This document shows, in pieces, positions 4,120 through 58,299 of a stretch of DNA of 64,000 nucleotides. Every line of letters starts with the position of its first letter. The first letter of the stretch is position 1. Below the pieces are notes generated by a model. That model made no database searches. It was not told the DNA's origin and worked only from the letters and a program-made list of their open reading frames with translations. Origin of the DNA: a virus. Taxonomy: Duplodnaviria > Caudoviricetes. The position numbers were made by a program, and so were the translations under genes. The stretch lies in IMG/VR virus record IMGVR_UViG_3300021185_003947; one strand, written 5' to 3'.

Positions 4120-4914
4120 CTATGATGAACTAGCTTCGTAAATCATTTTAATATTTTTTGAAATAGCTTTATTGAATTCTTCTTGACTCTGATTAAAAAA
4201 TAAATTTTCGCTTAGTCCTCGACTAAAACTTGCTCCCATATTCTTATTCTTTTTAAGCCTAGTACAGGCTTCATCAGTAGTGTATCCACCACTTAAACCT
4301 ACAACTTTATCTACTGACGGATGCTCAATTGAACTAGTATACAAATTAGCAGTTTCTGGTAATGTTAATTTAAGAATACATCTTCCTTTAAAATTTTGTA
4401 GACTGCGATATAATTCATCTTCAAGAATAACTTCTAGTTCTGCTTTTTGAGGATGATCAATTGGTACTTCAGGTTCAACAATAGGGACCAATCCTTCAGC
4501 GTATATTTTTTCTGCATATTCAAATTGCTGATCTAAAACAGTTTTTAATATTTGTTCTGTTTTAACAATACTTCTCATTTTTGTTCCGTAACAATTATGA
4601 GTTAATGCATACATAATCATTTCGCTTAAGTTAAAAACTTTAAGAGTACCATCATCTTCACATCCAGAATCAATTTTAAGAAATGCCTCAATTCCCTTTG
4701 CATTTAATTCTTTAACAGCTCCTCGATCCACAGAATCTTTATAAAGAATTGCTGCCCAAATATTTTCATGAATAAAATCAGGTGAGTTGATCATTCTCAG
4801 TCTCATATCATGAACTAGATCCATTTTATTGTCTTCAGTGTATTCTACATCATAGCGTTTTAATACGCCACCAGTGCTTCCTCCGCTATGATCCATTGCT
4901 GCAATAAACTTCAT
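4120..4914 (-). CDS. fda: Class I fructose-bisphosphate aldolase (bacterial Fda type)
   Basis: FIAAMDHSGGSTGGVL, FLKIDSG, GTKMRS, PIVEPEV and VGLSGGY...SFSRGL motifs. Start reassigned to MKFIAAM. Confidence 0.88.
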   Translation of the reverse strand: MKFIAAMDHSGGSTGGVLKRYDVEYTEDNKMDLVHDMRLRMINSPDFIHENIWAAILYKDSVDRGAVKELNAKGIEAFLKIDSGCEDDGTLKVFNLSEMIMYALTHNCYGTKMRSIVKTEQILKTVLDQQFEYAEKIYAEGLVPIVEPEVPIDHPQKAELEVILEDELYRSLQNFKGRCILKLTLPETANLYTSSIEHPSVDKVVGLSGGYTTDEACTRLKKNKNMGASFSRGLSENLFFNQSQEEFNKAISKNIKMIYEASSS

Positions 4915-4915
4915 C

Positions 4916-5158
4916 TCACTTCTCCCATTTTTTAAGTCTTTCTTCTTTTCCAAGTTCCCAAGCTTCTTCAAATCCATCAAATTGACTTGGATCACAATTA
5001 CACCATAATCGTTTAAGGTATCCTTGTAAAACACCATGAACATCTTTAGTCGAATATCCTATAGGTATTAACATTCCTTTAACACCCCACATGAAACGAT
5101 TAGCTTCTTTTATTTCTTCAAAAGTCATATCTTCTAAAGAAGCTTGATAATTTATCAT
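4916..5158 (-). CDS. Hypothetical protein
   Basis: 80-aa ORF overlapping its neighbours in operon fashion. Confidence 0.55.
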   Translation of the reverse strand: MINYQASLEDMTFEEIKEANRFMWGVKGMLIPIGYSTKDVHGVLQGYLKRLWCNCDPSQFDGFEEAWELGKEERLKKWEK

Positions 5159-5487
5159 TCATATGTCTCACCAGTTTCTCGAAAAAAGTTTTCAGACCAA
5201 AAGGCTTTATCATCAATCCAAATATCATAATGTTCTTTTTTACCAACACTTAATTCATGATATTTTGCACCCCACGCCATAAGTTGTCTTCTAGTAAGAG
5301 GTTCATAATCAACACCACTCACACAACCTCTTGCAGTCATATATTTTATAGTATGGCCAGCATCATATAATTTATTTACTCTTTCAATTCTGTTCATCAT
5401 AGGTTCATGCAATTCATAATTTTTTTTACCATCAGGTTCAAATACTTCATTACATATAGTGCCGTCAATATCAATCACATATTTCAT
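5155..5487 (-). CDS. Small HAD-superfamily phosphatase
   Basis: IDIDGTI, MTARG and WIDDK motifs. Confidence 0.8.
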   Translation of the reverse strand: MKYVIDIDGTICNEVFEPDGKKNYELHEPMMNRIERVNKLYDAGHTIKYMTARGCVSGVDYEPLTRRQLMAWGAKYHELSVGKKEHYDIWIDDKAFWSENFFRETGETYE

Positions 5488-6464
5488 CCTTTTTCTCCCT
5501 TAGCTATGCATAATTCAAATTCTCTCAATCTCTTCCAAACGCTTATAAGTTCTACAACTACCGCCCAAGATTTAACAACATATTGTAAACTACTTTCTAC
5601 TCGACCAAATGCTCTAATTGTCTGTTGTAATGCACCAAGTGTAATAGTACCGGCAAGAATAGTTGGTCCAAGTGCCAAATAAGGAACAAGAACCATGCCT
5701 TGAAAATAACTATATCTGGCTAAATTAAAATAAGCATAATGCATATACGATTTAAAGTGAATGTTTCTTACCCAATCAAATAGTTCAGCAAGAGTTTTTG
5801 GCTGACCAGCCTTTGGATCATCTTCAGCATGGACTAAAACTTTACGATATCCAGCTTCTCGTTTTTGAATATCATACTCAATGCCTGGCAATTTAATACC
5901 AACTGCGGCAAGTAACATTGTACCACCAAGAGCAGTTGCAAGTGCTACCCACATTAAAGAGTTTGATACTTCTCCAAGAATTGGAAGATGTGTAACGGCT
6001 GCTGATAGTCCTATTAGAATAGGAATAAAAGCAATAAGAGTCATAATAGAATCCATGAGTCCTACACCAAGATCTTCCATAATACGTGCAAACTTAATAG
6101 TATCTTCTTGAATTCGCTGAGATGCTCCTTCTAGTCCACGAGCATATTTAAATTTATCATGATAGAATTCTACCATACTTGTACGCCATCTAAATATCCA
6201 GTGAGATACAAAATATTTAGTTGCTACCATAATTATAATAAATTTAGCTGCAAGCCAGCCAAAACTTGCAAGGGATCCATAAAACTCTGCAGCTGAAAGT
6301 GAACCAGGTTCGGCAAGTGCTTTTTGAAGATTATCGTAAAAACCTCCGAACCATTCATTTATAGCAACATCAATTTGTACTTGATACCAAGTTGAAAATA
6401 GAATTATAAATGTCCCGAGTATTGACCAATGCATCCATTGCCGTTGAATAAAAAATTTAAACAT
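5484..6464 (-). CDS. sbmA: SbmA/BacA-family peptide transporter
   Basis: DVAINEWFGGFYDNLQKAL, FRWRT, EGASQRIQEDT and FGRVESSLQY; multi-TM, no ATPase domain. Confidence 0.85.
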   Translation of the reverse strand: MFKFFIQRQWMHWSILGTFIILFSTWYQVQIDVAINEWFGGFYDNLQKALAEPGSLSAAEFYGSLASFGWLAAKFIIIMVATKYFVSHWIFRWRTSMVEFYHDKFKYARGLEGASQRIQEDTIKFARIMEDLGVGLMDSIMTLIAFIPILIGLSAAVTHLPILGEVSNSLMWVALATALGGTMLLAAVGIKLPGIEYDIQKREAGYRKVLVHAEDDPKAGQPKTLAELFDWVRNIHFKSYMHYAYFNLARYSYFQGMVLVPYLALGPTILAGTITLGALQQTIRAFGRVESSLQYVVKSWAVVVELISVWKRLREFELCIAKGEKG

Positions 6465-7515
6465 GATATGGATCCATGTCTAAATATTTTCCCCATTCGC
6501 TATAGTAGTGACGCATACCAACTTCGTCATGTATTGTTGAGTTTTCATGTCTTCCATGTAAAATATGTCTGTCTTCTGTACCTTCTCTCATTGTTGTACC
6601 CTGTCCAGTTACACCTAATAGATCTTCATGTAAGTTGCGTCCAAATGGTCCCCAAATTGTATTGTGATGTTTGATGCGCGTTTGTCTTTCTTCTGGAGTG
6701 TCTTTGCGTAATCCATATCCTCTAAATTCTATTAGCACTTTATTAGGCCCTAGCGGAGTAACACTATCTGATCGATAAGCACTACCACGTAAGTTAAAGT
6801 TAAAGCCTGGAAATAAGTCTACCATGTACCATTGGTTTGGTGGCAAATTAGGAAAACTCAGTTCTCCTCTATCACCTTCTTTATCAAACTCAGTATAGTT
6901 AACTGTAAAGCTACTCACATTTACATGTCCATTATCAAATGCAATATTCTTTCTAGCAAAATATTCATCATTAAATCCTGTTACACGATTAAAGTAATGC
7001 ATGAAGTCATGATAGAATTCGCTATTAGTATCGTGCCATAGTTTATAGTTAGTAGGAATAACTGCTTTATGATAATGAAAAATTTCTAGTTCTTCTGTCT
7101 CAATAGCATCTGCAATACAATCAAATGCACCTGCTGTCCATTCTTCAACACTTTGAGTTGGATTTGGATCTAATGTTACCCATACCATTCCACCATGTTT
7201 AACTTCGCAATATAATAATCTTCCTTTATAAGGTGAAACATATTCTAATGTGCCACTTGGTCTTGTTTCACCTTTGTTTACATATGCTTTAACGCCATCC
7301 ACTTCATTAATTGCAATAACATTAATACCTGCTATTTGTGTTGTTCTAAAGTTACCTACGTTGTACATCTCTGAAATATGGCACATAGGAACCCAAACTT
7401 TTTTAAAAATTTGCTCTTGTTCTTGTTCGAATATTTCTGCATTATTATATGCTATGCTTGAAATTGATTCTACGTTTGGTTTCTTTAACCAATTTTTGTG
7501 ATTACGTGGTGGCAT
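6457..7515 (-). CDS. Ring-hydroxylating (Rieske-type) oxygenase alpha-subunit homologue lacking the [2Fe-2S] ligands
   Basis: IFKKVWVPMCHISE N-terminus and NYK...EFYHDFMH iron site present; CxH/CxxH absent (SPYKG in place of CPYHG). Confidence 0.8.
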   Translation of the reverse strand: MPPRNHKNWLKKPNVESISSIAYNNAEIFEQEQEQIFKKVWVPMCHISEMYNVGNFRTTQIAGINVIAINEVDGVKAYVNKGETRPSGTLEYVSPYKGRLLYCEVKHGGMVWVTLDPNPTQSVEEWTAGAFDCIADAIETEELEIFHYHKAVIPTNYKLWHDTNSEFYHDFMHYFNRVTGFNDEYFARKNIAFDNGHVNVSSFTVNYTEFDKEGDRGELSFPNLPPNQWYMVDLFPGFNFNLRGSAYRSDSVTPLGPNKVLIEFRGYGLRKDTPEERQTRIKHHNTIWGPFGRNLHEDLLGVTGQGTTMREGTEDRHILHGRHENSTIHDEVGMRHYYSEWGKYLDMDPYHV

Positions 7516-16921: not shown

Positions 16922-18952
16922 TTACCTTAAATTCGGATATTGCAAATCTTCCATTGCACCAAATGTTGGATCATTTACAAACCATCTTGAAAATTCATGA
17001 TCAACTGTTGGCTTAGGTGGATAGAAATATATGTCCGGTACTTCCATTTCACCGTAATCAAAATCAGGTACAAACGCAATCAATGCTAACAATTGTGCTT
17101 GAATTATCATTTGCTCCTCAATTGTATCTGCGTTGTCTATTTTCTTTCTCAATCCTTCAATTTTAGCTGCAACCAATGCCTTAATCTTTTCTGTTCTACT
17201 ATCCTTTTTTTCTTTTTCACTGGGCTCTGGCTTTTCTTCTTTTTTCACAGGTTGAGTAGCATCTTCTTCAGATTCAATGGTTTCGTCGGCATCTTTATCC
17301 TCATCTACTTCTTTATCATTTCCATCACCATCTTCAGAGCTAGTATCTTCCCCAGTGTCTTTTTCTTCTCCGTCATCACTCTCGGACTCGCTCGATTCAT
17401 CATCGGATGATTCCTTACTTTTTCCATCAGTATCGGATCCAGATCCGTCATTCTTTTCTGGCTCGGCTGGTTTTTCTTGCGACTCCGACTTTGGCTCGGA
17501 TCCAGACTCTCCTTTTCCTGAATCTCCTCCTCCATCTCCTTCGCTTGAGTCGGAGGTATTTGATTCAATAATTTCTGTTTCAGTTCGTCCATTTGATGAA
17601 TCCTCCACTTGTAATTCTATTTGAGCTATTTCTTGTTCTATAGATTCTGTACTAATATCACTTACAGCCGGAATTTCTTCTACAATTATTGGTTGAGGAA
17701 TTATAACTGGTTGAATAATAGGAATATCTGGCACTACAGTAACATTTAGTTCAGCAATAGGTTGAGATGTAATATTAGTTTCTGCTAATATTTCTTCTAT
17801 TGACTCTGGAGCTGTTACTGCTACATCACTTTCTGTGCTAGGAGCAATATAATTCGGACAACCCAGATCATATTGACTATCTAATTCACATTGTTGATTA
17901 TAATAAGCAACCTGATATAAAGGACAAGATGGTGAATATAATTGATCTATATTACATTGTTGATTAAGATATGCTGTATCATATCCTGGACAACCAGAAT
18001 CATATAAAGTATCAGCCTCACAGGCTTTATTATAAAGATATGCTACATATGCTTCTGCATAACCCGGACACGTAGGATTATATAAAGTGTCTAAATCGCA
18101 TGGATTATTTCTATATGTAAACCACATAGATCCATCTTTTACTACAGGACCATAATACCCGTTCCATTGTCCATTGTCTTGTGCAGTTGTAACAAATGTA
18201 ATATCACCTAATTGTGCTGGCGTATAAATTGTTCCAGATCCTGTAAGGTGATTAAATATTTCCATATAGTCTTGTTCTACTTGCCATACAGATCCACCTT
18301 CTACTTCTTCATTTGAACTATGAGCGTTTTCCTCATACCAACTATACCATGTATCATAATTATAGGTTTTAGTTTTTACCACATTTCCTGCAGCATCTGT
18401 TAAAGTAACAACAATATTTAATGTATCTAGCTGGTCAGCATATTCACCAGTAGCTTTCATATTCTCATCAAGTCGACTTGAAATATTAGTATCACAATAT
18501 ATTGTAGTACCATCTGATTTAGTTACGTTAAAACACCCATTAATATATTTCCAGCTATAGTGTATTTTATCTAAACTTATTCCAGTACCAGCATCTGAAA
18601 GAGCTTCATTTATAGCCATTCCTAATGCAAAACTATCGGCGCATGGTCCCCATTGTAAGGCATTTCCACCCCATGTATTACTAGTTGAAGGTATTAAATT
18701 TAAGTGTGTTGATCCACCTACACATGAACCCATTGTCATAGTGCCATCAGTAAGATCACCGATTTCTGGACTAGTTGTTATTGATCCATCATTATTTGTC
18801 ACGTACGTAGGTGCACCACCAGAAGAGGTCGGTGTACTTGCAGATTCTAAAACTAAATCTTGAGAGCTAGCCGGCCGCGGCAAGCAAAAGAAGCATAAGA
18901 AGAGCACCGCCAATAGCACTTTTGCCAGTATCCCATTGCCTTTTCTGAACAT
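16922..18952 (-). CDS. Exported protein with four Cys repeats (CxxDxxYxxxCPxY) and a long acidic linker
   Basis: Signal-like N-terminus; repeats such as CDLDTLYNPTCPGY and CEADTLYDSGCPGY; D/E/S/K-rich region. Confidence 0.7.
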   Translation of the reverse strand: MFRKGNGILAKVLLAVLFLCFFCLPRPASSQDLVLESASTPTSSGGAPTYVTNNDGSITTSPEIGDLTDGTMTMGSCVGGSTHLNLIPSTSNTWGGNALQWGPCADSFALGMAINEALSDAGTGISLDKIHYSWKYINGCFNVTKSDGTTIYCDTNISSRLDENMKATGEYADQLDTLNIVVTLTDAAGNVVKTKTYNYDTWYSWYEENAHSSNEEVEGGSVWQVEQDYMEIFNHLTGSGTIYTPAQLGDITFVTTAQDNGQWNGYYGPVVKDGSMWFTYRNNPCDLDTLYNPTCPGYAEAYVAYLYNKACEADTLYDSGCPGYDTAYLNQQCNIDQLYSPSCPLYQVAYYNQQCELDSQYDLGCPNYIAPSTESDVAVTAPESIEEILAETNITSQPIAELNVTVVPDIPIIQPVIIPQPIIVEEIPAVSDISTESIEQEIAQIELQVEDSSNGRTETEIIESNTSDSSEGDGGGDSGKGESGSEPKSESQEKPAEPEKNDGSGSDTDGKSKESSDDESSESESDDGEEKDTGEDTSSEDGDGNDKEVDEDKDADETIESEEDATQPVKKEEKPEPSEKEKKDSRTEKIKALVAAKIEGLRKKIDNADTIEEQMIIQAQLLALIAFVPDFDYGEMEVPDIYFYPPKPTVDHEFSRWFVNDPTFGAMEDLQYPNLR

Positions 18953-19448
18953 CTGCTTTTGTCTCCGGAATAATTATTGCAGGAATTTTCTTTTTGCCTG
19001 ATGGCTTTTTCCATTCAACCTTTGCGTCTTCACCAATTTTACCATAAATTGGACAAGGTGTTCCTGCCATTCCCATAGCATCGTATACTCTACGGTCTTG
19101 ACATAAGACCGATACTGCCGCAACTTTCATTCCAAAGTCATATAATGTTTTTGATATTTTAAGTCTTTCACAATTCTGATCGGTAACAGTTTCTCCGGTT
19201 GATATACCTAAAATTTGTGTCTGCACTGCTCCCGATATACCAACAGTACACAAGTCTTGAGAACTACCTCCAGCACTTGGAGAAATAGCACTTGGTGGTG
19301 GAGAAATTACAATTGTTCTACCTTTAGAGTCGGTTTTGCTTTTACTATCAGTTGTGGAGTCTATTACAGTTTGTGCATACAAAACAATAGGCTTTGATGC
19401 ACATGCTGCTAGTGTTAATAATATCAATATCAATAGTTGTTTACTCAT
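18867..19448 (-). CDS. Putative lipoprotein/membrane protein, Cys-rich
   Basis: Lipobox-like LAAC after a hydrophobic N-terminus; PPPSAISP; C-terminal hydrophobic tail. Confidence 0.65.
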   Translation of the reverse strand: MSKQLLILILLTLAACASKPIVLYAQTVIDSTTDSKSKTDSKGRTIVISPPPSAISPSAGGSSQDLCTVGISGAVQTQILGISTGETVTDQNCERLKISKTLYDFGMKVAAVSVLCQDRRVYDAMGMAGTPCPIYGKIGEDAKVEWKKPSGKKKIPAIIIPETKADVQKRQWDTGKSAIGGALLMLLLLAAAG

Positions 19449-19472
19449 AGTTAAACTCCTGTCTATCGATAC

Positions 19473-19480
19473 TATTTATA
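19473..19480 (-). promoter_or_regulatory. Late promoter TATAAATA
   Basis: Exact motif 25 nt upstream of 19448. Confidence 0.8.
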
Positions 19481-19481
19481 C

Positions 19482-19512
19482 AAAAAAAGAGAGCCGGAAG
19501 ACTCTCTTTTTT
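19482..19512. terminator. Bidirectional terminator downstream of tmRNA
   Basis: AAAAAAAGAGAG-CCGGAAGA-CTCTCTTTTTT. Confidence 0.75.
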
Positions 19513-19514
19513 AT

Positions 19515-19890
19515 CAAAAATAAGTACGACTTTTCTGTTGCTAGGTAAGTCGCCAACCCCCTGTGTTAGGCTGCTATTGCAACGTAACCAGATGGAGCAC
19601 AATTATTGTTTGCACTTGTAAAGTTCTTCGCGTTAACCCAGCTTAGATCGGGATAGTCTCCATGTTTCCGTCAACACCTGTCGATCCTATTTCAGCCCCA
19701 TCAAAAAGACACGAATAAGTAATGGTCCAATACGATAATTTTTATATGGATTACCGCTATTGTATCTAAAATCTCCCCATTGAAAAGGTTCTCCTTTAGT
19801 CCAACTTATCCAATGAAAGTCCATTCTTTAGTGTCCTTATGGTGGAGCTGCGCGGTACTGCCCCGCGGTCCAGTATGCATCTAGTTAATA
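19515..19890 (-). ncRNA. ssrA: Circularly permuted (two-piece) tmRNA; tag ANNNCAPSGYVAIAA
   Basis: Acceptor piece ends GCGGGGCAGTACCGCGCAGCTCCACCA at 19840. Coding piece starts GGGGCTGAAATAGGATCGAC at 19699. G3.U70 pair present; tag at 19566-19613. Outer ends are approximate. Confidence 0.92.
19687..19824 (-). CDS. 45-aa ORF in the tmRNA intervening segment
   Basis: MDFHWISWTKGEPFQWGDFRYNSGNPYKNYRIGPLLIRVFLMGLK; TAAGGA SD; the stop lies inside the tmRNA 5' end. Confidence 0.45.
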   Translation of the reverse strand: MDFHWISWTKGEPFQWGDFRYNSGNPYKNYRIGPLLIRVFLMGLK

Positions 19891-19918
19891 TCATCAACTA
19901 CATAGTATATATAATAGT

Positions 19919-21034
19919 TTAAACATATACAGAATTAAATTGTTGAGTACATCGAATAAATGTAGTACACTTACTTAATTGTTTAAGGTTAGAAGCGCCG
20001 GCATACGTGCAAGTACTACGTATTCCACCAAGAATATCTTGAATAGTATTTTTTATTTCGCCACGATACGGTATCAAAACAGTTCTACCTTCACTCGATC
20101 TGTAATTTTTAAGACCTCCAAAGTGTTTATTATTTGCAGTATCCGAACTCATTCCATAGAATTGTACGAATTGTTTCTCTTCAATCTTTGGCGCATTAGG
20201 TTCTTCAAATACTTCATTTGTAAAATAATGTTTGGTAATTACTTCACCGCCGCCTTCATCGTGTCCAGCTAACATCCCACCAAGCATAACGAAGTCGGCT
20301 CCTGCAGCGAATGCTTTAGCCACATCTCCAGGGCATGTACATCCACCATCAGCAATGATATGGCCTCCAAGACCATGCGCGGCATCAGCGCACTCAATAA
20401 CAGAAGACAACTGAGGATAACCAACACCCGTTTGAATCCGAGTAGTGCAAACACTCCCAGGACCAATGCCCACTTTAACAATATCGGCTCCATTTAAAAT
20501 TAACTCCTGTGTTTGATCTGCTGTAACTACGTTTCCAGCAATGATTACAATTCTGGGATAAAGACTTCTAAATTCTTTTATAAAATTACTAAATCTTACA
20601 GTATATCCATTAGCAACATCAATACATACATATTTTAATTGATCATCAACTTGCTCGTAAACTGTTCTAAACTTTTCATGATCTCGATCACTAATACCAA
20701 TACTCATTGCAGTATATTCAGTACGCAAATTATTATCACTATCAAAATAATCTACAAGATCATTAACGCTATAAGTTTTTACTAAACACGTGAAAGCAGA
20801 TTCAAGTGATAGTTTATCTGCCATTTCAAATGTACCAACACCATCCATGTTAGCTGCCATAATAGGAATACCCTCGTAATTATATGGTGCAGTACTATTT
20901 GGATAATCTGGACTATAATTTAAAAAAGTAAATTTACGTTCTAAATCAACTTCTTTTCTTGATTCAAGCGTGCTTCTTTTAGGACGAATAAGCACATCTT
21001 TATAGTCAAGCTTCATATCATCATCAATGCGCAT
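19919..21034 (-). CDS. guaC: GMP reductase
   Basis: LDYKDVLIRPKRS, CIDVANGY, KVGIGPGSVCTTR and FYGMSS. Confidence 0.95.
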   Translation of the reverse strand: MRIDDDMKLDYKDVLIRPKRSTLESRKEVDLERKFTFLNYSPDYPNSTAPYNYEGIPIMAANMDGVGTFEMADKLSLESAFTCLVKTYSVNDLVDYFDSDNNLRTEYTAMSIGISDRDHEKFRTVYEQVDDQLKYVCIDVANGYTVRFSNFIKEFRSLYPRIVIIAGNVVTADQTQELILNGADIVKVGIGPGSVCTTRIQTGVGYPQLSSVIECADAAHGLGGHIIADGGCTCPGDVAKAFAAGADFVMLGGMLAGHDEGGGEVITKHYFTNEVFEEPNAPKIEEKQFVQFYGMSSDTANNKHFGGLKNYRSSEGRTVLIPYRGEIKNTIQDILGGIRSTCTYAGASNLKQLSKCTTFIRCTQQFNSVYV

Positions 21035-23999: not shown

Positions 24000-24665
24000 T
24001 TATTCTCCCTGAATTAAATCCTCTGCAAGAGGAAAGATTTTACTAATAGCCTTACCACACTCTCGAGCAAGTTCCATATGCTCTTTTTGAGTACCATTAC
24101 CACTTCTCAATTCAATATAATGAATCCATGATCTAAGAGTTCCGTTAGCATATAAGCGAGATAAAGTTAAACCTTCGGGTAAAACCTTACGAGCCTGTTC
24201 TTTTGCAATGCCATTATCGATTGCCCAATCATAAGCCATCTTAGATGTTTCTATGACAGCCATTTGCTTATTCCACCATTCATTTTGCAGGCTATCATCT
24301 TCAGTCTCAATACTGTTTTGTCTATTTTTAGTGTCTTGAAGTCTTGCTTCAGACAATACAAAAGTTTCATCCATGTCACTTGGGTTAGCATACCGTTGAC
24401 TAAATTCTTGGAATGAAAATGATCTATGTCTCAAAAGCTGTCTAGCAATGTCTCGAGTAGTTTCAATTTCCATAGTGGCTGAAGCCATTTCAAGAGGAGA
24501 CCAATGTTTATGCTTAATCAGATATTTAATAAGCTTTTCACTGGTTGCACTATTAATTTGATTTGTAGGATTTGACACTCTTGCACAAAAAGCAATAAGA
24601 TCTTGAACATCACCAATTTCTGGCATATCATAAACTTGTGTGTATCCTATCAATTTGGCTTTCAT
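24000..24665 (-). CDS. thyX: Flavin-dependent thymidylate synthase
   Basis: HWSPLE, RHRSFSFQEFSQRY and AQ.E/QKEH motifs. Confidence 0.95.
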   Translation of the reverse strand: MKAKLIGYTQVYDMPEIGDVQDLIAFCARVSNPTNQINSATSEKLIKYLIKHKHWSPLEMASATMEIETTRDIARQLLRHRSFSFQEFSQRYANPSDMDETFVLSEARLQDTKNRQNSIETEDDSLQNEWWNKQMAVIETSKMAYDWAIDNGIAKEQARKVLPEGLTLSRLYANGTLRSWIHYIELRSGNGTQKEHMELARECGKAISKIFPLAEDLIQGE

Positions 24666-28158: not shown

Positions 28159-28977
28159 TTATTTGTTAAATGAGATATTTTGTTCAAGCTCCCTTTTATC
28201 TTTTGTATATTCAGATCTAATTTTATTATTTGATTTAATTACTTCATCTAATAAAGAAAACGATATTGCATAATCTAAAAACGCTGAAGTGTCTTTTGGA
28301 AAACAAGCTCCACCAAAACCCATTTTGCCATCAAATCCTGGAACACTCGTATGAGAGTTACCAATCCTTGGATCTGATCTCATTGCATAAGTAATCTCAT
28401 CAAAATTACAATCATGTTTTTGTATTATATCATAGAATTGATTGAACCATAATACCTTTGTAGCAAGAAAACAATTAATTCCATATTTAATAAAACTTGC
28501 TTCTTTTAATGTCACATGGTGGCATGGGCAAGGTTTACATTTACTATATTTTTTATATATTTTCTCAATATTATTTGTATCTTTAATATGCCCTCCAAAT
28601 ATATGCATTGGTGGATTAATAAAATCTTTATCTGCAGATTTTTCATTTAAAAATTCAGGATTATAAACTACTCTATCACCAGAAAGTTTATCTATAATGT
28701 CAGGTGTAACTGTTGATTTTATTACAATATGTCCAGCTCTATTAAGCTTTAACCATTTGACAGTTTCAATTACTAGTTCAGCATTAATTGATCCGTCATT
28801 ATTCATAGGTGTTGGTAAACATATAAAAAAGATATCATCAAATGGATTAGTATCTTCTACTGTAGTATTATATTTAATATCGATTGGTGTAATATCACAC
28901 AGTTTTTTATTAAAACCATTAATAATAGCTTTGCCTACAAATCCACATCCAATAACAGATATTTTTAATTTTAGCAT
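28159..28977 (-). CDS. ugd: UDP-glucose/GDP-mannose dehydrogenase family (short form)
   Basis: IGCGFVG, CLPTP, KST, NPEFL and GFGGACFPKD. Confidence 0.88.
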   Translation of the reverse strand: MLKLKISVIGCGFVGKAIINGFNKKLCDITPIDIKYNTTVEDTNPFDDIFFICLPTPMNNDGSINAELVIETVKWLKLNRAGHIVIKSTVTPDIIDKLSGDRVVYNPEFLNEKSADKDFINPPMHIFGGHIKDTNNIEKIYKKYSKCKPCPCHHVTLKEASFIKYGINCFLATKVLWFNQFYDIIQKHDCNFDEITYAMRSDPRIGNSHTSVPGFDGKMGFGGACFPKDTSAFLDYAISFSLLDEVIKSNNKIRSEYTKDKRELEQNISFNK

Positions 28978-30176
28978 ATAAATTCCTCTAATGTGTTACT
29001 CACCTTATCATAATTTATAGTTTGTTTTTTATTACATTGAATAGCAAATTTTGCATCAATCATTTGGTTATCAAGTCTGCCGTGTACAAAAGATTGAACT
29101 TGTTCAGCCATATCCTGTGCAGTAGTCACAGGAACATTTTGACAAATCATATTAAGATTTTTTATTCCACCTTGTAACATAAAATCACCTGGAAGTTTCA
29201 TAATAGAAAGACATTCTCGAATAGTCAAATAACGATCTTCATCTGGATGAGTAAGTGATCCTGGCATATGACCTACAAACGCTCCAATATAATCTTTAGG
29301 TATTTCAGTAGTCTTACGCATAATATTACCGCCACTTTTTAGCTTATGATACATACGATTACATTTACCAGCTTCGTTTTCAAATCCTTTTTCTTTCATC
29401 CACTCACCTACTTGATCATATTTAATTCCAGATTTTTCAATTTCATCAAGTGGATTAGTACTCTTTATAATTATATCTTGAAATTTAGAATGACAAATGC
29501 CATTATTAAGTTCTTCAAGTACATATTTATAAAACGGATTTTTACTTGGTATATTTTTATTAACAATTATATTCATAGGATCATCTTCATGTAGATCTAC
29601 ATTACGAATAGTATCTTCAATTTTTTCATGTTTGCGTTCAATATAACTTAACATTGGTATCTTATCACCTTGCCAGAAAAAATAAAAAGTACGATCACGT
29701 ACTTGGCTTAGTCCATGAAGTATAGATTTTGTTTTATAGATACTAAATGTATATCCATTTTGACTAGCAATTCGTTTTAACTGTTCAACAACAGGTTCGC
29801 CCATTTTGCTAGCCAGTCTTGGAGCATTTTCACCCCAAAATACTTTAGGTTTTAGTGTGCCTAAAACATGCCGAGCAGTACTTAACATCCAATCATTATT
29901 AGCATTAGTCGACGATGCAGATGGGCTAAGACTTGATAATCCAGCACATGGGCAAACAGTATTAATAACATCAACACTTGGTATGTTATAAGGAGTATCA
30001 CCATCTAAATGATGATAGGGTACTTTGTTTTTATAGTATTCAACTAACTGTCTATCATTAGCTTCAAACGCAGAATAGCTTAAAATATATTCAGGTTTTG
30101 TACCAAAAACATTTTCTTGGGCGATTGTTTCACCACCAATAAGTGGCACAATAGATGCGTGTTTATATGTCATCAA
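28971..30176 (-). CDS. C5-cytosine methyltransferase-like protein with atypical motif I
   Basis: PCAG (IV), ENAP (VI), QVRDR (VIII), RYLTIRE (IX) and QNVP (X); FxGxG replaced by PLIGG. Confidence 0.7.
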   Translation of the reverse strand: MMTYKHASIVPLIGGETIAQENVFGTKPEYILSYSAFEANDRQLVEYYKNKVPYHHLDGDTPYNIPSVDVINTVCPCAGLSSLSPSASSTNANNDWMLSTARHVLGTLKPKVFWGENAPRLASKMGEPVVEQLKRIASQNGYTFSIYKTKSILHGLSQVRDRTFYFFWQGDKIPMLSYIERKHEKIEDTIRNVDLHEDDPMNIIVNKNIPSKNPFYKYVLEELNNGICHSKFQDIIIKSTNPLDEIEKSGIKYDQVGEWMKEKGFENEAGKCNRMYHKLKSGGNIMRKTTEIPKDYIGAFVGHMPGSLTHPDEDRYLTIRECLSIMKLPGDFMLQGGIKNLNMICQNVPVTTAQDMAEQVQSFVHGRLDNQMIDAKFAIQCNKKQTINYDKVSNTLEEFIC

Positions 30177-31201
30177 AAAAAGTCCTCTAGTGTATTACTA
30201 ATTTCTTCACCAGTCCAATGTGGATAATATTGTCTTGATAAATGTATTGATTGAGGCTTTTCCATATAATCAAAATCTAACTCTCCTTCTCTATTTGTGA
30301 GTTTATTGACCCATCGAATTATTTTAGCTCTTTTAGCTTTTGTTTCTAAAATTTCTCTAAATTTTAATCTGGCCTCATTGCGCTGTTCCCAAGTACCCCA
30401 GAAGGGTTGGTCTTTATAATAACCAGACTTTGGTAATTTGCGACTAGTATGCTCAATAGGCAAAAGTTCATATATAGAAACATTTTCAATAGGTAATGCC
30501 TCAACTGCAGTTATATATCTTTCTGCTAAGTTAATAGTATTTTCTAAAAAATCTCCATCAAGCCGACAAACGTGATGGCGAATGTCAATATTACCAAAAT
30601 AACATTCAAGCTCTTTGATATTTTCAAAATCACTTATATATGTTTGAAGACCATCATTTAATGCGCCATTTAGTGTTTTAAATGGTACACTATTTACGGT
30701 CCAGCTTGGACGATACATACAAATAGAATGACTATCACCAATTACAAGCTTATTAGTTATTAAAGGATACTTAATAGTTTGAGCAGTTTCATACATTCTT
30801 TTAAGATTATCAATATCAACTTCAAGCCATTCAGATTGAATATCATTACCCTTTGCTTTTGCTTTATCAATTCTTTCTTGAATCATTTCATGATAAGGTG
30901 GAAAGTCAATTGCTAATGAATATACTTTACCTTTGAATTTTGAAAAGTTACGAGTGTTAGCAGCATAGGGAAATCCCTTTACACCACCAAACACATTCAT
31001 TGATCCAGACCAATCATTGCCATGATAAACATACATTTCGTCGTAGTCATTATGATCTTCAATTTTACCAGAATAGTTGATAGTAATATCAACTCCGGTT
31101 TGTTTGATCATATCAGCATAGATTGCACCTTGAGCACCTCTATGAGATGCCATACGAGTAGCAACTGGAATAAATGGAGCATTTAATATAGCTTTTATCA
31201 T
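30173..31201 (-). CDS. Putative DNA-modifying protein: beta-glucosyltransferase-like N-domain fused to an SGNH-like domain
   Basis: N-half KAILN / NDYDEMYV / MNVFGG / KFKGKVYSL resembles T4 BGT as I recall it. C-half has IGDSH, GNID and SIHLS. Confidence 0.45.
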   Translation of the reverse strand: MIKAILNAPFIPVATRMASHRGAQGAIYADMIKQTGVDITINYSGKIEDHNDYDEMYVYHGNDWSGSMNVFGGVKGFPYAANTRNFSKFKGKVYSLAIDFPPYHEMIQERIDKAKAKGNDIQSEWLEVDIDNLKRMYETAQTIKYPLITNKLVIGDSHSICMYRPSWTVNSVPFKTLNGALNDGLQTYISDFENIKELECYFGNIDIRHHVCRLDGDFLENTINLAERYITAVEALPIENVSIYELLPIEHTSRKLPKSGYYKDQPFWGTWEQRNEARLKFREILETKAKRAKIIRWVNKLTNREGELDFDYMEKPQSIHLSRQYYPHWTGEEISNTLEDFF

Positions 31202-31207
31202 TATAGT

Positions 31208-31236
31208 AATATATCACACTTTCTTATAAATGTAAA
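31208..31236 (-). promoter_or_regulatory. sigma70-type early promoter
   Basis: TTTACA-N17-TATATT. Confidence 0.6.
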
Positions 31237-31239
31237 GGT

Positions 31240-32337
31240 CTAAACCATAAAAGATTCTAATGGTGATGGTTCAAGTTTTTTCTTTAAATTTTCAGCAATA
31301 TCAACAAACGAATCAAACGTTAATGGTAACATTCTTTTAGTTTGAGCCTTTGAATTATCTTTGATTCCAAGAAAACAATTAAATTGACAAAAAGTAATTT
31401 CAGTACCAAAGGTTGTGAGATTACCATTTCGTTCAAGATTTTCTTTATAGAACATTGCAGAAGTGTTATCCATTTCAAAAAACTCATGTTGATGATCTCT
31501 AACTGCTATTATATATGCTTCCATAATTTCATTATTTTTAAATTTAACTTCTGGAAATACATACTCAAGACCACGTTTAGCACCAGGGCCAACTAAACAA
31601 TAATTATCATCCTCATCAATATTAGGTAAATCATTACATCTAGAAAAATTGCAGGGTGGGTGATATGAAAAATATGGTCCAATACCACGATGAGTAGAGA
31701 ACCAATCACAAACATCACCTAGTTTATTATTTTTATCTTGTACAACCTTACTCATACCAAGATCATCTAAATGAGCCATCCATCTAATCATGTGAGATAA
31801 AGCAAACTTTTCGTTTGGATCTTCATCTTCTTCTCTACAAAAATTACGAGCAGATGTTTGAAGACTAGTTTGAAGTTGAGTTGCACCCCAAACTTTCATT
31901 TTGTTTTTATTAGTATTTAGATTGTTATTAATCCAATGATAATAATCTTTTTTTAGTTTATATTCATCAAAATCAATAATTTTACTATAGTCAGTAGAGT
32001 CTGAAGCAACCAAAGTAAGTGTTGGCATACCTACAAACTTTACTGCCATAGCATTGAGAATTTTATTTCTCATTGAAGTATCTTGGTTAAATACAAAATT
32101 CTCTAACCAATATACCTCGGCATGTTTAGAACGATTTGGGTTCCAATATGAAACTTCTTGTCTCATTGCAGGGCCAAAATCTTCAGAGTATTCGTATTCG
32201 TTAATTTGACCCCTTTCTCTTAAAGTTTCTCTTTTAAAAAAATCAAGAACCCACTTATTAAAATAATTAAAATTATTTGGATCACGGGTCTGTTTTAACG
32301 TTTTAAGCGAAATCATGCCGCACATTTTCCTTTTCAA
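31240..32337 (-). CDS. aGPT-Pplase / amino-acid:DNA transferase-like protein (HhH-glycosylase fold)
   Basis: RGIGPYFSY...D...VGPGAKRGL..VFP...EITFCQF pattern. True start may be internal. Confidence 0.6.
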   Translation of the reverse strand: MKRKMCGMISLKTLKQTRDPNNFNYFNKWVLDFFKRETLRERGQINEYEYSEDFGPAMRQEVSYWNPNRSKHAEVYWLENFVFNQDTSMRNKILNAMAVKFVGMPTLTLVASDSTDYSKIIDFDEYKLKKDYYHWINNNLNTNKNKMKVWGATQLQTSLQTSARNFCREEDEDPNEKFALSHMIRWMAHLDDLGMSKVVQDKNNKLGDVCDWFSTHRGIGPYFSYHPPCNFSRCNDLPNIDEDDNYCLVGPGAKRGLEYVFPEVKFKNNEIMEAYIIAVRDHQHEFFEMDNTSAMFYKENLERNGNLTTFGTEITFCQFNCFLGIKDNSKAQTKRMLPLTFDSFVDIAENLKKKLEPSPLESFMV

Positions 32338-39000: not shown

Positions 39001-39717
39001 TTATAACATATTTTTAACAGCTTGTAAATAAGAAAATGTATCTTCCCAACTATTCACTTGATATGTACTATTTTCTCCTCCACGATCATGTACAGCTAAT
39101 GCGATTTCATGATCATTTCCACCTTTATCACATTTGTCTCCAAAGAAATAGATAACATCTGAAGAATCAAAATCATCAAGAATTTGTGATTTATTATTTC
39201 CTTTAGCAGTAATATCTATACCGGTTTCGCCAGCGACTTGAAATTCAAACAATGGAAATCGCTCTCGTAGCTTAGCAGCAATATTATTTCTTTCATTAGT
39301 ATAATTGTCATATGCTACGTATTGAATTCGAGTACGATTACCTATATTTCTTCCTGGAATAGACAAGTTATATAGACCCGGACGTTCCTCAATATGCTGT
39401 CCGTTTTTAACTGGAAATGAACTGTCAGTAATTGCTTTGTTTAAATAGCCCCACATTTCATCTGGTAACTTTAAAGTAGAAGTACGAACATTCTTACCGC
39501 GTTCCCACACGTCATTTCCACAACATTGATAATTGCGCTTAGTCATTCCCCAAATAACTTCTCCAACTTGCTCTCGTGTTTTTTGAATATCGCTACCTGT
39601 TACTAAATACACTTTATTTAAAGTACAAAAATCAAAGAAAAACTTTGAAAACTCTTCATCCATTTTACCTCTGCTTGGAGTAAGAGTTCCATCAACATCA
39701 AAAATAAAATTAATCAT
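39001..39717 (-). CDS. HAD IIB phosphomannomutase (eukaryotic PMM type)
   Basis: FDVDGTLTPSR, VTGSD, IEER and FFGDK...GGNDHEI. Confidence 0.85.
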   Translation of the reverse strand: MINFIFDVDGTLTPSRGKMDEEFSKFFFDFCTLNKVYLVTGSDIQKTREQVGEVIWGMTKRNYQCCGNDVWERGKNVRTSTLKLPDEMWGYLNKAITDSSFPVKNGQHIEERPGLYNLSIPGRNIGNRTRIQYVAYDNYTNERNNIAAKLRERFPLFEFQVAGETGIDITAKGNNKSQILDDFDSSDVIYFFGDKCDKGGNDHEIALAVHDRGGENSTYQVNSWEDTFSYLQAVKNML

Positions 39718-40942
39718 TTATTAAGCTTTCTAGAATGTTTAACACACTTTCACTATCGTCATGAGTACCACGTCTAATAGCTCCCTTGACACAATTTCTA
39801 GTAAAGTCCAATGGATATCGCTTGCCTTCTTTATCCATTCCCGTATTGATTAAATATACATTGCATTTATTATCATTAATTTTACTCATTAGTAAATCAC
39901 TATAAACATGTATCGGTCTTGGCATAAAAGGTGAGCCATAGCATGGACTAAAGAGTGGCTTGATTTCTGTTGCTCCCTGCTCAGTTCCGGGCATTTGGCT
40001 TGTGTATCCAGTTTCAAAGAAACGTCGTACAGTCTCATCAGAAATTTTAGATACCGGAGGAAACACGCCTTTCGCATCCATAGTAAGAAAAAAGATATTA
40101 GTTGGATGATTAAATTGTTGAGGTTTATGATATGCGTTTTCAACACAAGTAATTGGATAACTTAATCTTGCATTTGGTACACCTGGATTTTCTACAACTA
40201 AGCAATCTTCTGATCTTGCTTTTTCTACTGCATCAAATATAGTCTTATGTGTCTCTGGTGTTAATCCTTCACTTTTTGCGTAACAACCAGTTTCTATCAT
40301 TTCAATTCCATCGTGATTCCAAGATACTTCGTCATCACTAATTAATCTATAATCCGGATCGCTACTAAGAGTAGTTTTACCAGTACCACTTAATCCAAAC
40401 ATTAAATTAGTTGTATCATTATATGTAAAGGCACTACAATGCATTGGTAAAATATCATATCTTGGTAGTTCAAAACTAACTATACCAAATATACCTTTTT
40501 TGATTTCACCTAAAAATGTTGTTCCAGCAATTAACATAGTTTTAGTATCAAGATTTACATAGATTTTTGGTTCATCGACCTTTAATTCTGTGTTATGCCA
40601 AATCGTCCAATCAGAATCATGTGCGCTATGTGGATAAACTTGAGGATCAAACCCATCAGGCAATACATCAAACATATTCTTAACAAATTGCTCATGTCTC
40701 GCATCATTAGTAATTATTTTAAATCTGATATTACATGTCTCAAGGCATAAAGGTTCTTTATAAATCAATTGAGATATTAACCTAGGCATCATCAAATCTG
40801 CAAGTTGAAGAAAGTCTTCCATCTCTCCAACTTTATAATACTTTGGTCGAGTCTTATCTAAACACTTTGTTTTTTCTCCAAAAAAGTATTTATTTTCTGG
40901 GCTTCGGCCAGTTGGATTTGTTGTAATATTAATATTTGTCAT
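39710..40942 (-). CDS. pckA: Phosphoenolpyruvate carboxykinase (ATP), compact form
   Basis: [42 protein letters not shown] and NTG. Confidence 0.9.
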
Positions 40943-54988: not shown

Positions 54989-56638
54989 ATGGCTAGACGC
55001 ATAACTGTAAACTTAAGTGACACTATCAACACTTGGAGAATAAAGACAAATGCTCTCAGTCTTTTGATAGGTGATTTAGATGATTTATCTTCTGAATTTA
55101 CTGGTCATGATTCTGATTTTGTAGAAGCTATGAATTTTGCATTTGATAAAAAAGGCCTCTACTCAGCAGGTCTTGGAATAACCAAATCAACTAGTGGAGA
55201 TTCTTCAGGTGTATTTAATGTTTTAGCTGGAACTGGATTAACACAGGATTCAAATGGTTTAAGTATAGGCCCTGCTCCGGGAAATACAATTAAAGTTAGA
55301 GATGCAAATTCTGCCGGAGCTTTGTCTGATAAAGAAATAATTAATGAACAAATTTTAATTGGTAATGGCAATGGTTTTACATCTGCTGCTTTATCTCAAG
55401 ATGTTCTTATGACAAATGCTGGTGTTGTTACAATTCAACCTGATGTTGTTACGTATTCTAAAATGCAAAATGTTGTAGGCGCAAACAAAGTTCTTGGAAG
55501 TTCAACCGCAAATGGAATTATAACAGAGACTCAAGTGCAAACTGGAATGATTGCAGATGACGCTGTTACTACTGTTAAAATTCTAGATGATAATGTTACA
55601 TATGCTAAAATTCAAGATGCAGGCGCCAATTCAATTCTAGTTAGAGACGGAGCTGCAGCTGGAGATATATCAGCAAAAACTTTAACAGATACTCAAATCT
55701 TAATTAATAATGGAGCAGGATTTACTGCTGCAGCATTATCTGGTGATATTACAATGAATAATGCTGGAGTAGTAACAGTTGATCCGTCAGTAATCGGGAG
55801 TGTAGGCATTACTATCGGTGGAAACGCCCCAACTTCACCTGCAAATGGAACAGCCTGGTTTGACGATGTAACAGCCGGCGAAATGTTTGTATATAGCGAT
55901 AGCGCATCAAATTGGATACAGGTCACAGGGTCTATCACTTCTTTTTCAGCTATAAGTGGAACACCACCGGCGGCACCTTTAGATGGTACTTTTTGGTTTG
56001 ATGATGTAACAGACGGAGAACTGTTCATTTATAGTGATAGTGCATCAAATTGGATACAGGTTACTGGATCAATCACTTCTTTTTCAACAATAGGCGCATC
56101 GCCTCCAGCTGCACCTTTAAATGGTACTTTTTGGTTTGATGACAGCGCAACTGGAGAACTGTTTATTTATAGTAATGATGCATCAAATTGGATACAGGTT
56201 ACTGGCGTAGTCGCTAATGTAGCATTCTCCGATTTAACAAGTACTCCAACTACTTTAGCTGGCTACGGAATTACAGATGCACCGTCGGTATTAACTGACC
56301 TAAGTATTACTGATGGAACAAGCGGACAAGTACTAACAACAGACGGTAGTGCTGGATTTACATTTACATCTGCATCAAGTAGTACAACCTTTAATGCCAT
56401 TGGAACTTATTGTTTGGGGTTCTATACTGGTCTTGGCATTCACAATGGAGGTGCTACTTTCTCAGGAAGTTCAATTGCTACTGCTAATACTTATGCCGGT
56501 ACTAGTGGCTGGAGTGGATCTAGTACTTCTACTTTATCAGGAACTTGGCGCCTTATGGGAAACATAGGCTATTATAATCAAGGTACCACTGCAAGTAACG
56601 CAAACGTATCCGGCAGTTTATTTGTGAGGATTTCATAA
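54989..56638 (+). CDS. Tail fibre / baseplate-associated fibre protein
   Basis: DTINTWRIKTN N-terminus, internal repeats, C-terminal GTWRLMG...FVRIS module; late promoter. Confidence 0.75.
   Translation: MARRITVNLSDTINTWRIKTNALSLLIGDLDDLSSEFTGHDSDFVEAMNFAFDKKGLYSAGLGITKSTSGDSSGVFNVLAGTGLTQDSNGLSIGPAPGNTIKVRDANSAGALSDKEIINEQILIGNGNGFTSAALSQDVLMTNAGVVTIQPDVVTYSKMQNVVGANKVLGSSTANGIITETQVQTGMIADDAVTTVKILDDNVTYAKIQDAGANSILVRDGAAAGDISAKTLTDTQILINNGAGFTAAALSGDITMNNAGVVTVDPSVIGSVGITIGGNAPTSPANGTAWFDDVTAGEMFVYSDSASNWIQVTGSITSFSAISGTPPAAPLDGTFWFDDVTDGELFIYSDSASNWIQVTGSITSFSTIGASPPAAPLNGTFWFDDSATGELFIYSNDASNWIQVTGVVANVAFSDLTSTPTTLAGYGITDAPSVLTDLSITDGTSGQVLTTDGSAGFTFTSASSSTTFNAIGTYCLGFYTGLGIHNGGATFSGSSIATANTYAGTSGWSGSSTSTLSGTWRLMGNIGYYNQGTTASNANVSGSLFVRIS
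55820..56210 (+). repeat. Three tandem ~44-aa repeats (P.AP..GT.WFDD...GE.F.YS..ASNWIQVTG)
   Basis: Visible at both protein and DNA level. Confidence 0.85.
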
Positions 56639-56744
56639 TGACTATTGGAGTAGTTCTGAAGCAAATAGCGGTTCAAAGGGGTATACTGGTGGTACAGAAA
56701 CCCGGCCAAGAAACATTGCATTTCTAGCTTGTATTAAATATTAA
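56638..56744 (+). pseudogene. Orphan 3' end of a tail-collar fibre gene
   Basis: Reads ...GGTETRPRNIAFLACIKY* out of frame with the ATG at 56638. Confidence 0.7.
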
Positions 56745-56756
56745 GGAGACATTGGT

Positions 56757-57152: not shown

Positions 57153-57178
57153 AGTATGCATAATTAGGAGAAAAAGGA

Positions 57179-57847: not shown

Positions 57848-57859
57848 GGAGAAACAATA

Positions 57860-58276: not shown

Positions 58277-58279
58277 ATA
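58272..58279 (+). promoter_or_regulatory. Late promoter TATAAATA
   Basis: Exact motif 21 nt upstream of 58300. Confidence 0.75.
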
Positions 58280-58299
58280 TATAATCAGGAGAAACAGAA

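Follow-up and report, generated by a model that had tools for sequence, protein, structure and literature searches.

The 64,000-nt stretch of viral DNA analysed here (the window) belongs to a marine T4-like myovirus with a GC content of ~33%, and it holds one RNA gene, a circularly permuted tmRNA on the minus strand that ARAGORN placed at 19475–19933 with the tag ANNNCAPSGYVAIAA. Rfam searches returned the same gene: RF01849 (alpha_tmRNA) matched 19523–19943 on the minus strand with 100.4 bits (cut-off 50, E 3e-26), and RF04321 (tmRNA_permuted) matched 19566–19901 on the same strand with 107.8 bits (cut-off 47). Both scores are about twice the respective gathering scores. The original prediction of a phage-borne, circularly permuted two-piece tmRNA of the alpha type was confirmed by ARAGORN and both Rfam models, including the two checks it had itself proposed (ARAGORN or the Rfam alpha_tmRNA model), and by the T4-like context. 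Its span, 19515–19890, lies within the gene but cuts off the 5′ arm and the terminator; the features that it quoted are all present, but on the minus strand, the letters having been given in RNA sense without a strand. The features of the locus are as follows.

19919–21034, minus strand: GMP reductase/IMPDH-family gene, upstream neighbour (PF00478, 229 bits)
19475–19943, minus strand: whole permuted tmRNA gene, from 5′ arm to terminator (ARAGORN and Rfam)
19840–19901, minus strand: acceptor piece, 5′ bound predicted (Rfam alignment, sequence)
19863–19867 with 19851–19855, minus strand: T stem (T arm 19851–19867)
19856–19862, minus strand: T loop GGCAGUA (sequence)
19844–19850, minus strand: acceptor 3′ strand CAGCUCC (sequence)
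19840–19843, minus strand: encoded ACCA (sequence)
19700–19839, minus strand: intervening segment (spacer) of 140 nt, predicted to be removed on maturation (sequence)
19687–19824, minus strand: 45-codon ORF encoding a mini-protein, ATG at 19822–19824 and stop UAG at 19687–19689 (translation)
19523–19699, minus strand: coding piece, 3′ bound predicted (Rfam alignments)
19693–19699, minus strand: acceptor 5′ strand GGGGCUG, G1 at 19699 (sequence)
19566–19613, minus strand: tag frame ANNNCAPSGYVAIAA plus UAA, resume codon GCA (ARAGORN, direct translation)
19483–19512, minus strand: intrinsic terminator, hairpin and U run (fold −18.8 kcal/mol, z −4.9)
19473–19480, minus strand: TATAAATA, a T4-type late-promoter motif for the next gene (motif scan)
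18867–19448, minus strand: 193-aa predicted lipoprotein (lipobox LAAC), downstream neighbour (translation)

The gene runs from a 5′ arm through the T arm, the acceptor 3′ strand with CCA, the 140-nt spacer, GGGGCUG and the tag frame to the terminator, such that, as predicted originally, the acceptor piece (..ACCA, with CCA at 19840–19842) is encoded 5′ of the coding piece, which starts with GGGGCUG at G1 (19699). In the Rfam alignment the 5′ arm of the acceptor piece pairs with the coding piece. GGGGCUG and CAGCUCC form an acceptor stem of seven pairs that contains the alanine identity pair G3:U70, likewise recognized beforehand. The coding piece comprises the acceptor 5′ strand, the P2 region, a hairpin before the tag (CCCG...UGGG, ~19637–19652, modelled by RF04321 and seen in the Rfam alignment), the tag frame and a 3′ tail. 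The terminator that had been read after the gene is present as a hairpin with its U run; it was not called by the consensus scan and was recovered by folding instead, with none of 200 shuffles being equally stable. The same kind of scan gave no promoter upstream of the tmRNA. Downstream, TATAAATA lies 25 nt upstream of the lipoprotein ATG at 19448 and appears to mark the end of the tmRNA transcription unit. This motif is not enriched across the window (13 copies versus 12.9 expected); ~8 of the 13 copies lie just upstream of gene starts in the ORF table, and promoter use is suggested from these positions only.

The T4-like character of the window is seen in genes for a gp43-type family B polymerase, a gp41-like helicase, a gp46/47-like nuclease, UvsX and a clamp loader, as well as for a baseplate or structural protein and tail-collar fibres. 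The polymerase is ~45–53% identical to those of phages in the collection, with Phage C48C1 the best match and cyanomyophages following at ~47%. No integrase was seen among the ~40 largest ORFs scanned. The GMP reductase-family stop lies 17 nt before the tmRNA 5′ arm, and the gene is missing at this position in three other loci (L016, L124 and L030). At the DNA level, the downstream lipoprotein gene and genes found in eight Pelagibacter phages are ~74% identical, a similarity that hints at, and does not prove, a SAR11 host. The permuted layout had been taken to point to the host class; this proved unsafe, because the OM43 phage Melnitz carries an alpha-type tmRNA and infects a host that is not an alphaproteobacterium. 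A tblastn search of the 64-kb window with three alphaproteobacterial SmpB proteins found no smpB, and function of the tmRNA therefore depends on a host factor, presumably the host's own copy of SmpB.

The tag read by the original prediction is the same in ARAGORN and in direct translation of 19566–19613 on the minus strand, its codons (GCA ... GCA AUA GCA GCC UAA) giving an alanine resume codon and an AIAA end. At least seven other contigs contain exactly this tag and four contain ANNNCAPSGYALAA; close relatives carry ANNNCAPSGYALAA or ANNNFAPSGYALAA, and the variants group around a single pattern (ANNNFAPSGYALAA, ANDNFAPQEFAQAA, ANANRAPEMALAA and others). The tag had been described as longer than alphaproteobacterial tags and as containing Cys. 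Both the Cys and the extra residue are real, but they amount to a one-base and a one-residue variant: the Cys codon UGU stands where relatives have UUU or UUC for the common Phe, and close relatives have tags shorter by one residue. Its 15 residues are not exceptional, because the bacterial alpha tags sampled span 9 to 32 residues.

To place the RNA among its relatives, we used a 20-mer from the 5′ end of the coding piece, which is present in more than 120 IMG/VR contigs; ARAGORN called a permuted tmRNA in 64 of these, and the 64 phage genes together with the window formed a comparison set of 65. CAGCUCC stands opposite GGGGCUG, and thus U70 and the G3:U70 pair are kept, in 65/65 genes, and the tag frame is intact, with an Ala start and an AA end, in the 64 phage genes. 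Among the 65, at least 10 versions of the 5-bp T stem were counted, all of them Watson–Crick paired save one with a single G:U. Between the window and three relatives (L002, L043 and L016), three T-stem pairs have changed in a compensatory manner with the spacer ORF unchanged. Taken together, the invariant G3:U70 and the T-stem covariation indicate, from sequence comparison, that the tmRNA is under selection.

Searches in other collections were less productive. A blastn search of the tmRNA against 50,697 phage records gave no match, which does not show absence because the conserved stretches lack the length to pass the E-value limit; no tmRNA is present in G001, the nearest viral record. A BLAST search for a bacterial donor, with the coding piece against 401 alphaproteobacterial genomes, gave only matches of 20–26 nt. 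These short matches lie in small genomes (1.1–1.9 Mb). A combined pattern of the 20-mer and an AN[ND]N tag start matched one alphaproteobacterial metagenome-assembled genome (MAG).

The spacer of the window, which the original prediction left without mention of a gene, is occupied by the 45-codon ORF. Its ATG follows AAGGA at a distance of 9 nt, and it runs into the mature coding piece, whose 5′ end takes in the last four sense codons and the stop; all spacer copies of the ORF end at a UAG 13 nt inside the mature coding piece. Closest relatives differ by 11 substitutions in the ORF, eight of which are synonymous third-position changes. Across 31 distinct versions of a 36-codon core, drawn from 63 loci, 9 first, 12 second and 27 third codon positions are variable, and synonymous to non-synonymous codon differences stand at 206:167 in frame versus 88:328 and 76:328 in the other frames. 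As judged from these substitution patterns, the spacer ORF is under purifying selection. The phage L092, whose flanking proteins are 98–100% identical to those of the window, carries the same ORF outside its tmRNA, directly after the GMP reductase stop and with its own stop codon, and the L092 tmRNA has an unrelated spacer of 115 nt without a long ORF. Frame-specific selection, the existence of homologues (below) and the L092 placement together argue that the ORF is an independent, selected gene. Outside spacers, ORF tails diverge after a conserved ..IRVF, and the borrowed tail is incidental because these tails differ.

An AlphaFold2 model built with the family alignment is four-stranded, of beta type and confident (pLDDT 91.3), and the ORF product is accordingly predicted to be a beta-rich mini-protein. 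Foldseek comparison of this model with the PDB gave a best match at E 1.8 and none that was significant, and the fold therefore yields no functional hint. Neither Pfam nor PHROGs matched the window ORF or any of six further spacer ORFs, save for sub-threshold matches in L012 and L060, and no endonuclease domain was found in the spacer ORF with either resource.

Spacer length ranges from 8 to 183 nt across the 65 phage genes and from 6 to 44 nt in six bacterial examples. In the minimum-energy fold the ends of the window's spacer are closed by an 8-bp helix between AAGGACAC (19831–19838), the first 8 nt after CCA-U, and GUGUCUUU (19705–19712), which lies 5 nt before G1. All eight pairs are standard in 37/37 spacer copies captured, in four stem variants, and a compensatory G-C to C-G exchange that is synonymous on the coding side separates two subfamilies. 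In the window AAGGACAC contains the Shine–Dalgarno sequence of the ORF, which the helix buries. The spacer overall is not unusually structured (z −1.07). Every distinct spacer of at least 140 nt in the sample holds a long ORF starting 12–24 nt after CCA, and these ORFs fall into seven unrelated peptide families of 41–59 codons, each ORF being individually rarer than 94–99.8% of shuffles. Sample spacers of 90–134 nt hold no long ORF, and many phage tmRNAs have a short spacer without an ORF. Two loci (L005 and L017) have one spacer ORF in common; the two versions differ at eight amino acids and the frame is unbroken.

An exhaustive phmmer search extended the family of the window's mini-protein to 26 homologous clusters (E up to 1e-3, identity down to ~40%) with the core SWFKG.PFQWG.FRFNSG.PY.SYR.GPLLIRV. 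In the family alignment N22, G24 and Y27 are invariant and G11, Y30, R31 and G33 nearly so, and the window ORF fits this pattern; by these comparisons the family appears to be an uncharacterised one without a Pfam or PHROG model. The closest sister subfamily comprises 50 IMG/VR loci, of which 30 lie within a permuted tmRNA by ARAGORN and ~13 more do so by inspection (an acceptor end upstream and GGGG..UAGGAUCGAC downstream); ~43/50 copies are therefore in tmRNA spacers, ARAGORN having missed ~13 of these 43 ORF-bearing tmRNA genes. At least 12 distinct tags and several T stems were counted among the tmRNAs that host sister-subfamily ORFs. The ORFs of L166 and L200/L201 stand behind a second or degenerate acceptor-like piece, end on a stop codon of their own and are followed by a full tmRNA gene (543 nt away in L166 and 12 nt in L200), and four further loci of the subfamily are in other places.

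Among more distant members, clusters P0016, P0020 and P0021 (also locus L215) are found in phage tRNA arrays; in the three clusters the ORF starts 10–13 nt after the CCA of tRNA-Ala(UGC) in the order Ala-ORF-Lys, and we count them as one lineage, not three events, because this order is shared. Between cluster P0011 and a permuted tmRNA downstream of it are 14 nt, and this tmRNA has its own promoter (TTGACA-17-TATAAA). Elsewhere, distant members belong to ordinary operons of small genes and have neither a tRNA nor a tmRNA in their vicinity. The apparent link of the family to alanine-type tRNA-like 3′ ends is striking, its basis being two or three independent arrangements only.

With this evidence, it is highly probable that the phage locus encodes a working two-piece tmRNA of the alpha type and also carries a small protein gene. 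The processing, charging and rescue steps outlined here follow established tmRNA biology (the Caulobacter two-piece tmRNA and trans-translation). Briefly, a single precursor would be transcribed, in which the 8-bp closing helix would hold the CCA end and G1 together; host RNase P would cut at G1 (19699) and host nucleases would trim the acceptor piece to CCA (19840). The two pieces would remain base-paired and would be charged with alanine by host AlaRS, after which host SmpB and EF-Tu would deliver the tmRNA to ribosomes stalled on broken mRNAs; the stalled peptide would receive ANNNCAPSGYVAIAA and be degraded, and the ribosome would be freed. The phage may thereby gain extra ribosome rescue at a time when host transcription is off and mRNA decay yields non-stop messages. 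For the nested gene, a complete ORF message would exist only on the uncut precursor, because the UAG lies 13 nt inside the mature coding piece, and the RNase P cut at G1 would leave the ORF without a stop. Since the stop lies beyond G1, translation of the ORF and the RNase P cut would exclude each other on any one transcript.

A further, tentative reading, which we hold to be on balance unlikely, is that the mini-protein is tied to alanine-accepting tRNA-like 3′ ends and that the precursor is a dual-use RNA switch. It draws on the gene travelling with tRNA-Ala and with the tmRNA acceptor piece, its start at most ~15 nt from CCA. If true, translation of the ORF would block tmRNA maturation and the cut would turn the ORF into a non-stop message to be tagged by the mature tmRNA itself, a self-referential switch between protein and rescue RNA; the protein could act on the processing or charging of the tmRNA or tRNA-Ala, or on trans-translation.

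Other readings assign the RNA a different role. The tRNA-like parts could serve mainly as processing 'punctuation' that releases and regulates the message of the small protein, in the way of tRNAs within polycistronic precursors, with ribosome rescue secondary or lost. The three distant clusters that start 10–13 nt after the tRNA-Ala(UGC) CCA (one Ala-ORF-Lys order) speak for such a role, as do L166 and L200/L201, where the ORF stands behind an acceptor-like piece separate from the downstream full tmRNA gene. We nevertheless find it improbable, given a tag frame that stays intact from Ala start to AA end in the 64 phage genes, a G3:U70 pair that is invariant and would not be needed by a mere cleavage signal, and the many phage tmRNAs whose short spacers hold no ORF. 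Rather unlikely, too, is that the phage tmRNA redirects trans-translation instead of boosting it, an idea raised by the authors of PMC9004378 and compatible with the variation of tags among phage lineages at positions 3 to 10. That variation looks like drift around a single pattern, nearly all variants keep a degron-like C-terminal A-[LI]-A-A end, and no sequence feature confers selectivity for host messages.

Two readings deny function to either the RNA or the ORF. Since integration commonly takes place at tmRNA genes, and prophages contain tmRNA gene fragments (PMC9004378), the gene might be a non-functional passenger, either an ssrA copy acquired accidentally from a host or what is left of an integration site. 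Yet no part of it is missing, and the stems show covariation across more than 60 phage copies; the search of 401 alphaproteobacterial genomes yielded no close donor, with one bacterial match to the combined pattern; and the window has the genes of a lytic T4-like phage, with no integrase among the ~40 largest ORFs, all of which makes a passenger scarcely credible. It is also very improbable that the spacer ORF is a chance open frame whose conservation is due to RNA structure. The conserved 8-bp helix at the spacer ends and the shortness of the ORF, which has no stop of its own, would be in keeping with this; against it stand the unremarkable structure of the spacer overall (z −1.07), a third-position bias of substitutions in this frame only, homologues down to ~40% identity in settings without a tmRNA, the ORF outside the spacer and with its own stop in the near-identical phage L092, and a confidently predicted fold. 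A working tmRNA gene that carries an independent protein gene thus remains the preferred reading.

The tmRNA itself joins a group that is already in the literature. Buchholz et al. 2022 (PMC9004378) described a two-piece alpha-type tmRNA in the OM43 phage Melnitz, and such RNAs have been published also for pelagimyophages; in the same study two-piece tmRNAs numbered 53 among 18,146 phage genomes, 50 of them aquatic. Phage tmRNAs had been called uncommon in the original prediction, which holds overall (tmRNAs in 2.3% of phage genomes) but not in the present setting, with permuted tmRNAs in 17/47 Melnitz-like contigs (PMC9004378) and the 20-mer in the contigs counted above. Among isolated SAR11 myophages we found permuted tmRNAs in Mosig (93.6 bits) and HTVC008M (90.6 bits); none was found in C48C1. 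The window shares with Melnitz, HTVC008M and Mosig the affiliation to a Kyanoviridae-like, low-GC, marine phage group and the alpha-type permuted tmRNA. It differs from Melnitz in that the glutamine riboswitch adjoining the Melnitz tmRNA (PMC9004378) is absent here: no Rfam match other than the tmRNA reached the gathering score in the window, which excludes a glnA-type riboswitch at that score, and at E up to 1 the only further match in 19300–20100 was rpsL_pseudo (21.1 bits against a cut-off of 70). The tag of HTVC008M is ANFNEYALAA as opposed to ANNNCAPSGYVAIAA, and the HTVC008M and Mosig genes, at ~340 nt, have room for a short spacer only, whereas the gene in the window has 459 nt and the ORF.

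Compared with Caulobacter ssrA and the alphaproteobacterial two-piece tmRNAs, the gene order, the G3:U70 pair, the encoded CCA, the alpha-type T loop GGCAGUA and the AN..AA tag are the same; the differences are that this gene is encoded by a lytic-type T4-like phage and that its spacer is protein-coding and 140 nt long, versus 6–44 nt. Small ORFs in the tRNA arrays of T4-like phages offer a parallel, their message likewise being carried on a stable-RNA precursor, and relatives of the spacer protein do occur between tRNA genes, 10–13 nt after tRNA-Ala. Unlike these, the window ORF lies within one RNA gene, between halves that later pair, and borrows its stop from the mature RNA. In bacterial 23S rRNA, intervening sequences carry the S23p ORF and are excised via RNase III; there too a small ORF sits on the excised piece of a stable-RNA precursor, but the RNA, the protein family and the excision route are different.

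Other inserts in tmRNA genes have been catalogued in the 2025 tmRNA database paper (PMC11915505), namely T-loop group I introns that carry homing-endonuclease genes and, within intervening sequences, a tRNA-Ala gene or a repetitive element. As in the window, the extra genetic material occupies a portion of the tmRNA gene that the mature RNA lacks, but the window insert is not a self-splicing intron and has no endonuclease domain. We found no description of a protein gene in a tmRNA intervening sequence in the searchable literature, and PMC11915505 mentions none; on these comparisons the nested, conserved mini-protein gene appears to be a new element of an otherwise published kind of tmRNA.

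Thirteen studies have marine metagenomes with this stretch, and six RNA libraries contain it too, in each case as contigs only. One RNA-library contig of 166 nt matches 19536–19699 without a mismatch, the match ending at G1 and the last two letters not fitting, and a second, matching 19536–19778, runs through G1 into the ORF. The end at G1 is at most a weak hint of processing, as DNA carry-over is possible and contigs cannot reveal transcript ends, strand or abundance. We set aside high-depth contigs in which 19701 and 19838 are joined by a 20-nt spacer, since they belong to another tmRNA, probably a bacterial one.

The window adds a member to, and so confirms, the set of abundant marine T4-like phages that carry their own ribosome-rescue RNA, and it points to the "throw-away" spacer of a permuted stable-RNA gene being used as coding space. 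Sister-subfamily ORFs sit in the spacers of at least a dozen tmRNA variants and the family recurs behind tRNA-Ala genes, which makes testable whether one precursor serves as both messenger and stable-RNA precursor and whether translation competes with RNase P. The nested gene matters for annotation as well, because gene callers and tmRNA finders mask each other's finds. Gene callers sometimes extend the ORF into tmRNA sequence.

The arrangement of the tmRNA and mini-protein genes varies among related viral contigs. When one such locus, L092 (3900-4300, minus strand), was compared with window positions 19652-19940, the flanking proteins were found to be 98-100% identical, and the mini-protein ORF lay upstream of the tmRNA gene and not within it, unlike in the window. 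The 5′ arm of the L092 tmRNA also differs from that of the window, the T4-type late-promoter motif TATAAATA immediately precedes its acceptor piece, and the beginning of its 115-nt spacer is similar to the window leader. Judged by sequence, the tmRNA 5′ module of L092 looks recombinant, and it is similar to that of loci L200 and L025. These two loci belong to one contig (IMGVR_UViG_3300047383_000745), which has two consecutive slots: a degenerate acceptor-like piece comes first, followed by a mini-protein family member that has a stop codon of its own, and after a TTGACA..TATAAATA promoter there is a full permuted tmRNA gene. The spacer of this full tmRNA holds a different ORF of 41 codons, preceded by the same TAAGGATACTAA leader.

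In one relative the usual UAG is absent, and the ORF called for P0004, a protein homologous to the mini-protein, continues beyond the mini-protein across the tmRNA 5′ region and reaches the tag (...ANDNFAPEMRLAA) in the same frame; this long ORF could be either a genuine read-through product or an error of the gene caller. RNA-library runs X17 and X20 yielded contigs (depth 436-490) that share the tRNA-like parts with the window tmRNA but carry a 20-nt spacer, across which they are continuous in the RNA libraries; their probable source is a tmRNA gene from some abundant bacterium of marine waters.

Of the permuted tmRNA genes with an ORF that visual inspection reveals, ARAGORN misses roughly one quarter to one third (missed loci: L162, L165, L171, L178, L180, L185-L187, L190-L192 and L207), and it reported no permuted tmRNA in 56 of the 120 contigs examined with the conserved 20-mer. 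Phage tmRNA counts obtained with ARAGORN are therefore too low.

Neighbouring and other genes of the window:
19919-21034, minus strand: GMP reductase gene
18867-19448, minus strand: lipoprotein-signal protein of 193 aa (LAAC and a hydrophobic C-terminus), behind a TATAAATA motif
39710-40942, minus strand: phosphoenolpyruvate carboxykinase-family gene (PF01293, 308 bits), adjoining the DNA polymerase gene
5484-6464, minus strand: SbmA/BacA-like inner-membrane transporter gene (PF05992, 432 bits)
6457-7515: ring-hydroxylating oxygenase-like gene, beside the transporter gene
4120-5043: aldolase-like gene, near the transporter gene
24000-24665 and 28159-32337, minus strand: candidate DNA-modification cluster

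Because the GMP reductase gene is absent at the same position in relatives L016, L124 and L030, where the tmRNA is adjoined by a DUF3310 gene or other genes, it represents a lineage-specific insertion. The DNA of the lipoprotein-signal gene is ~74% identical to genes of eight Pelagibacter podo- and myophages, a likeness that hints at a SAR11 host for the window phage.

The phosphoenolpyruvate carboxykinase-family gene is an unusual auxiliary metabolic gene in a phage. The candidate modification cluster, which contains ThyX, a UDP-glucose dehydrogenase-like gene, a C5 cytosine methylase and a 5-hmdU DNA kinase-like helical domain, suggests from its gene content that the phage DNA could carry hypermodified bases. 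Nearly all genes before 54.9 kb lie on the minus strand; two tail-collar fibre genes lie on the plus strand at 56000-62000, where GC content is 0.42-0.44 versus ~0.33 elsewhere, and may be recently exchanged host-recognition genes.
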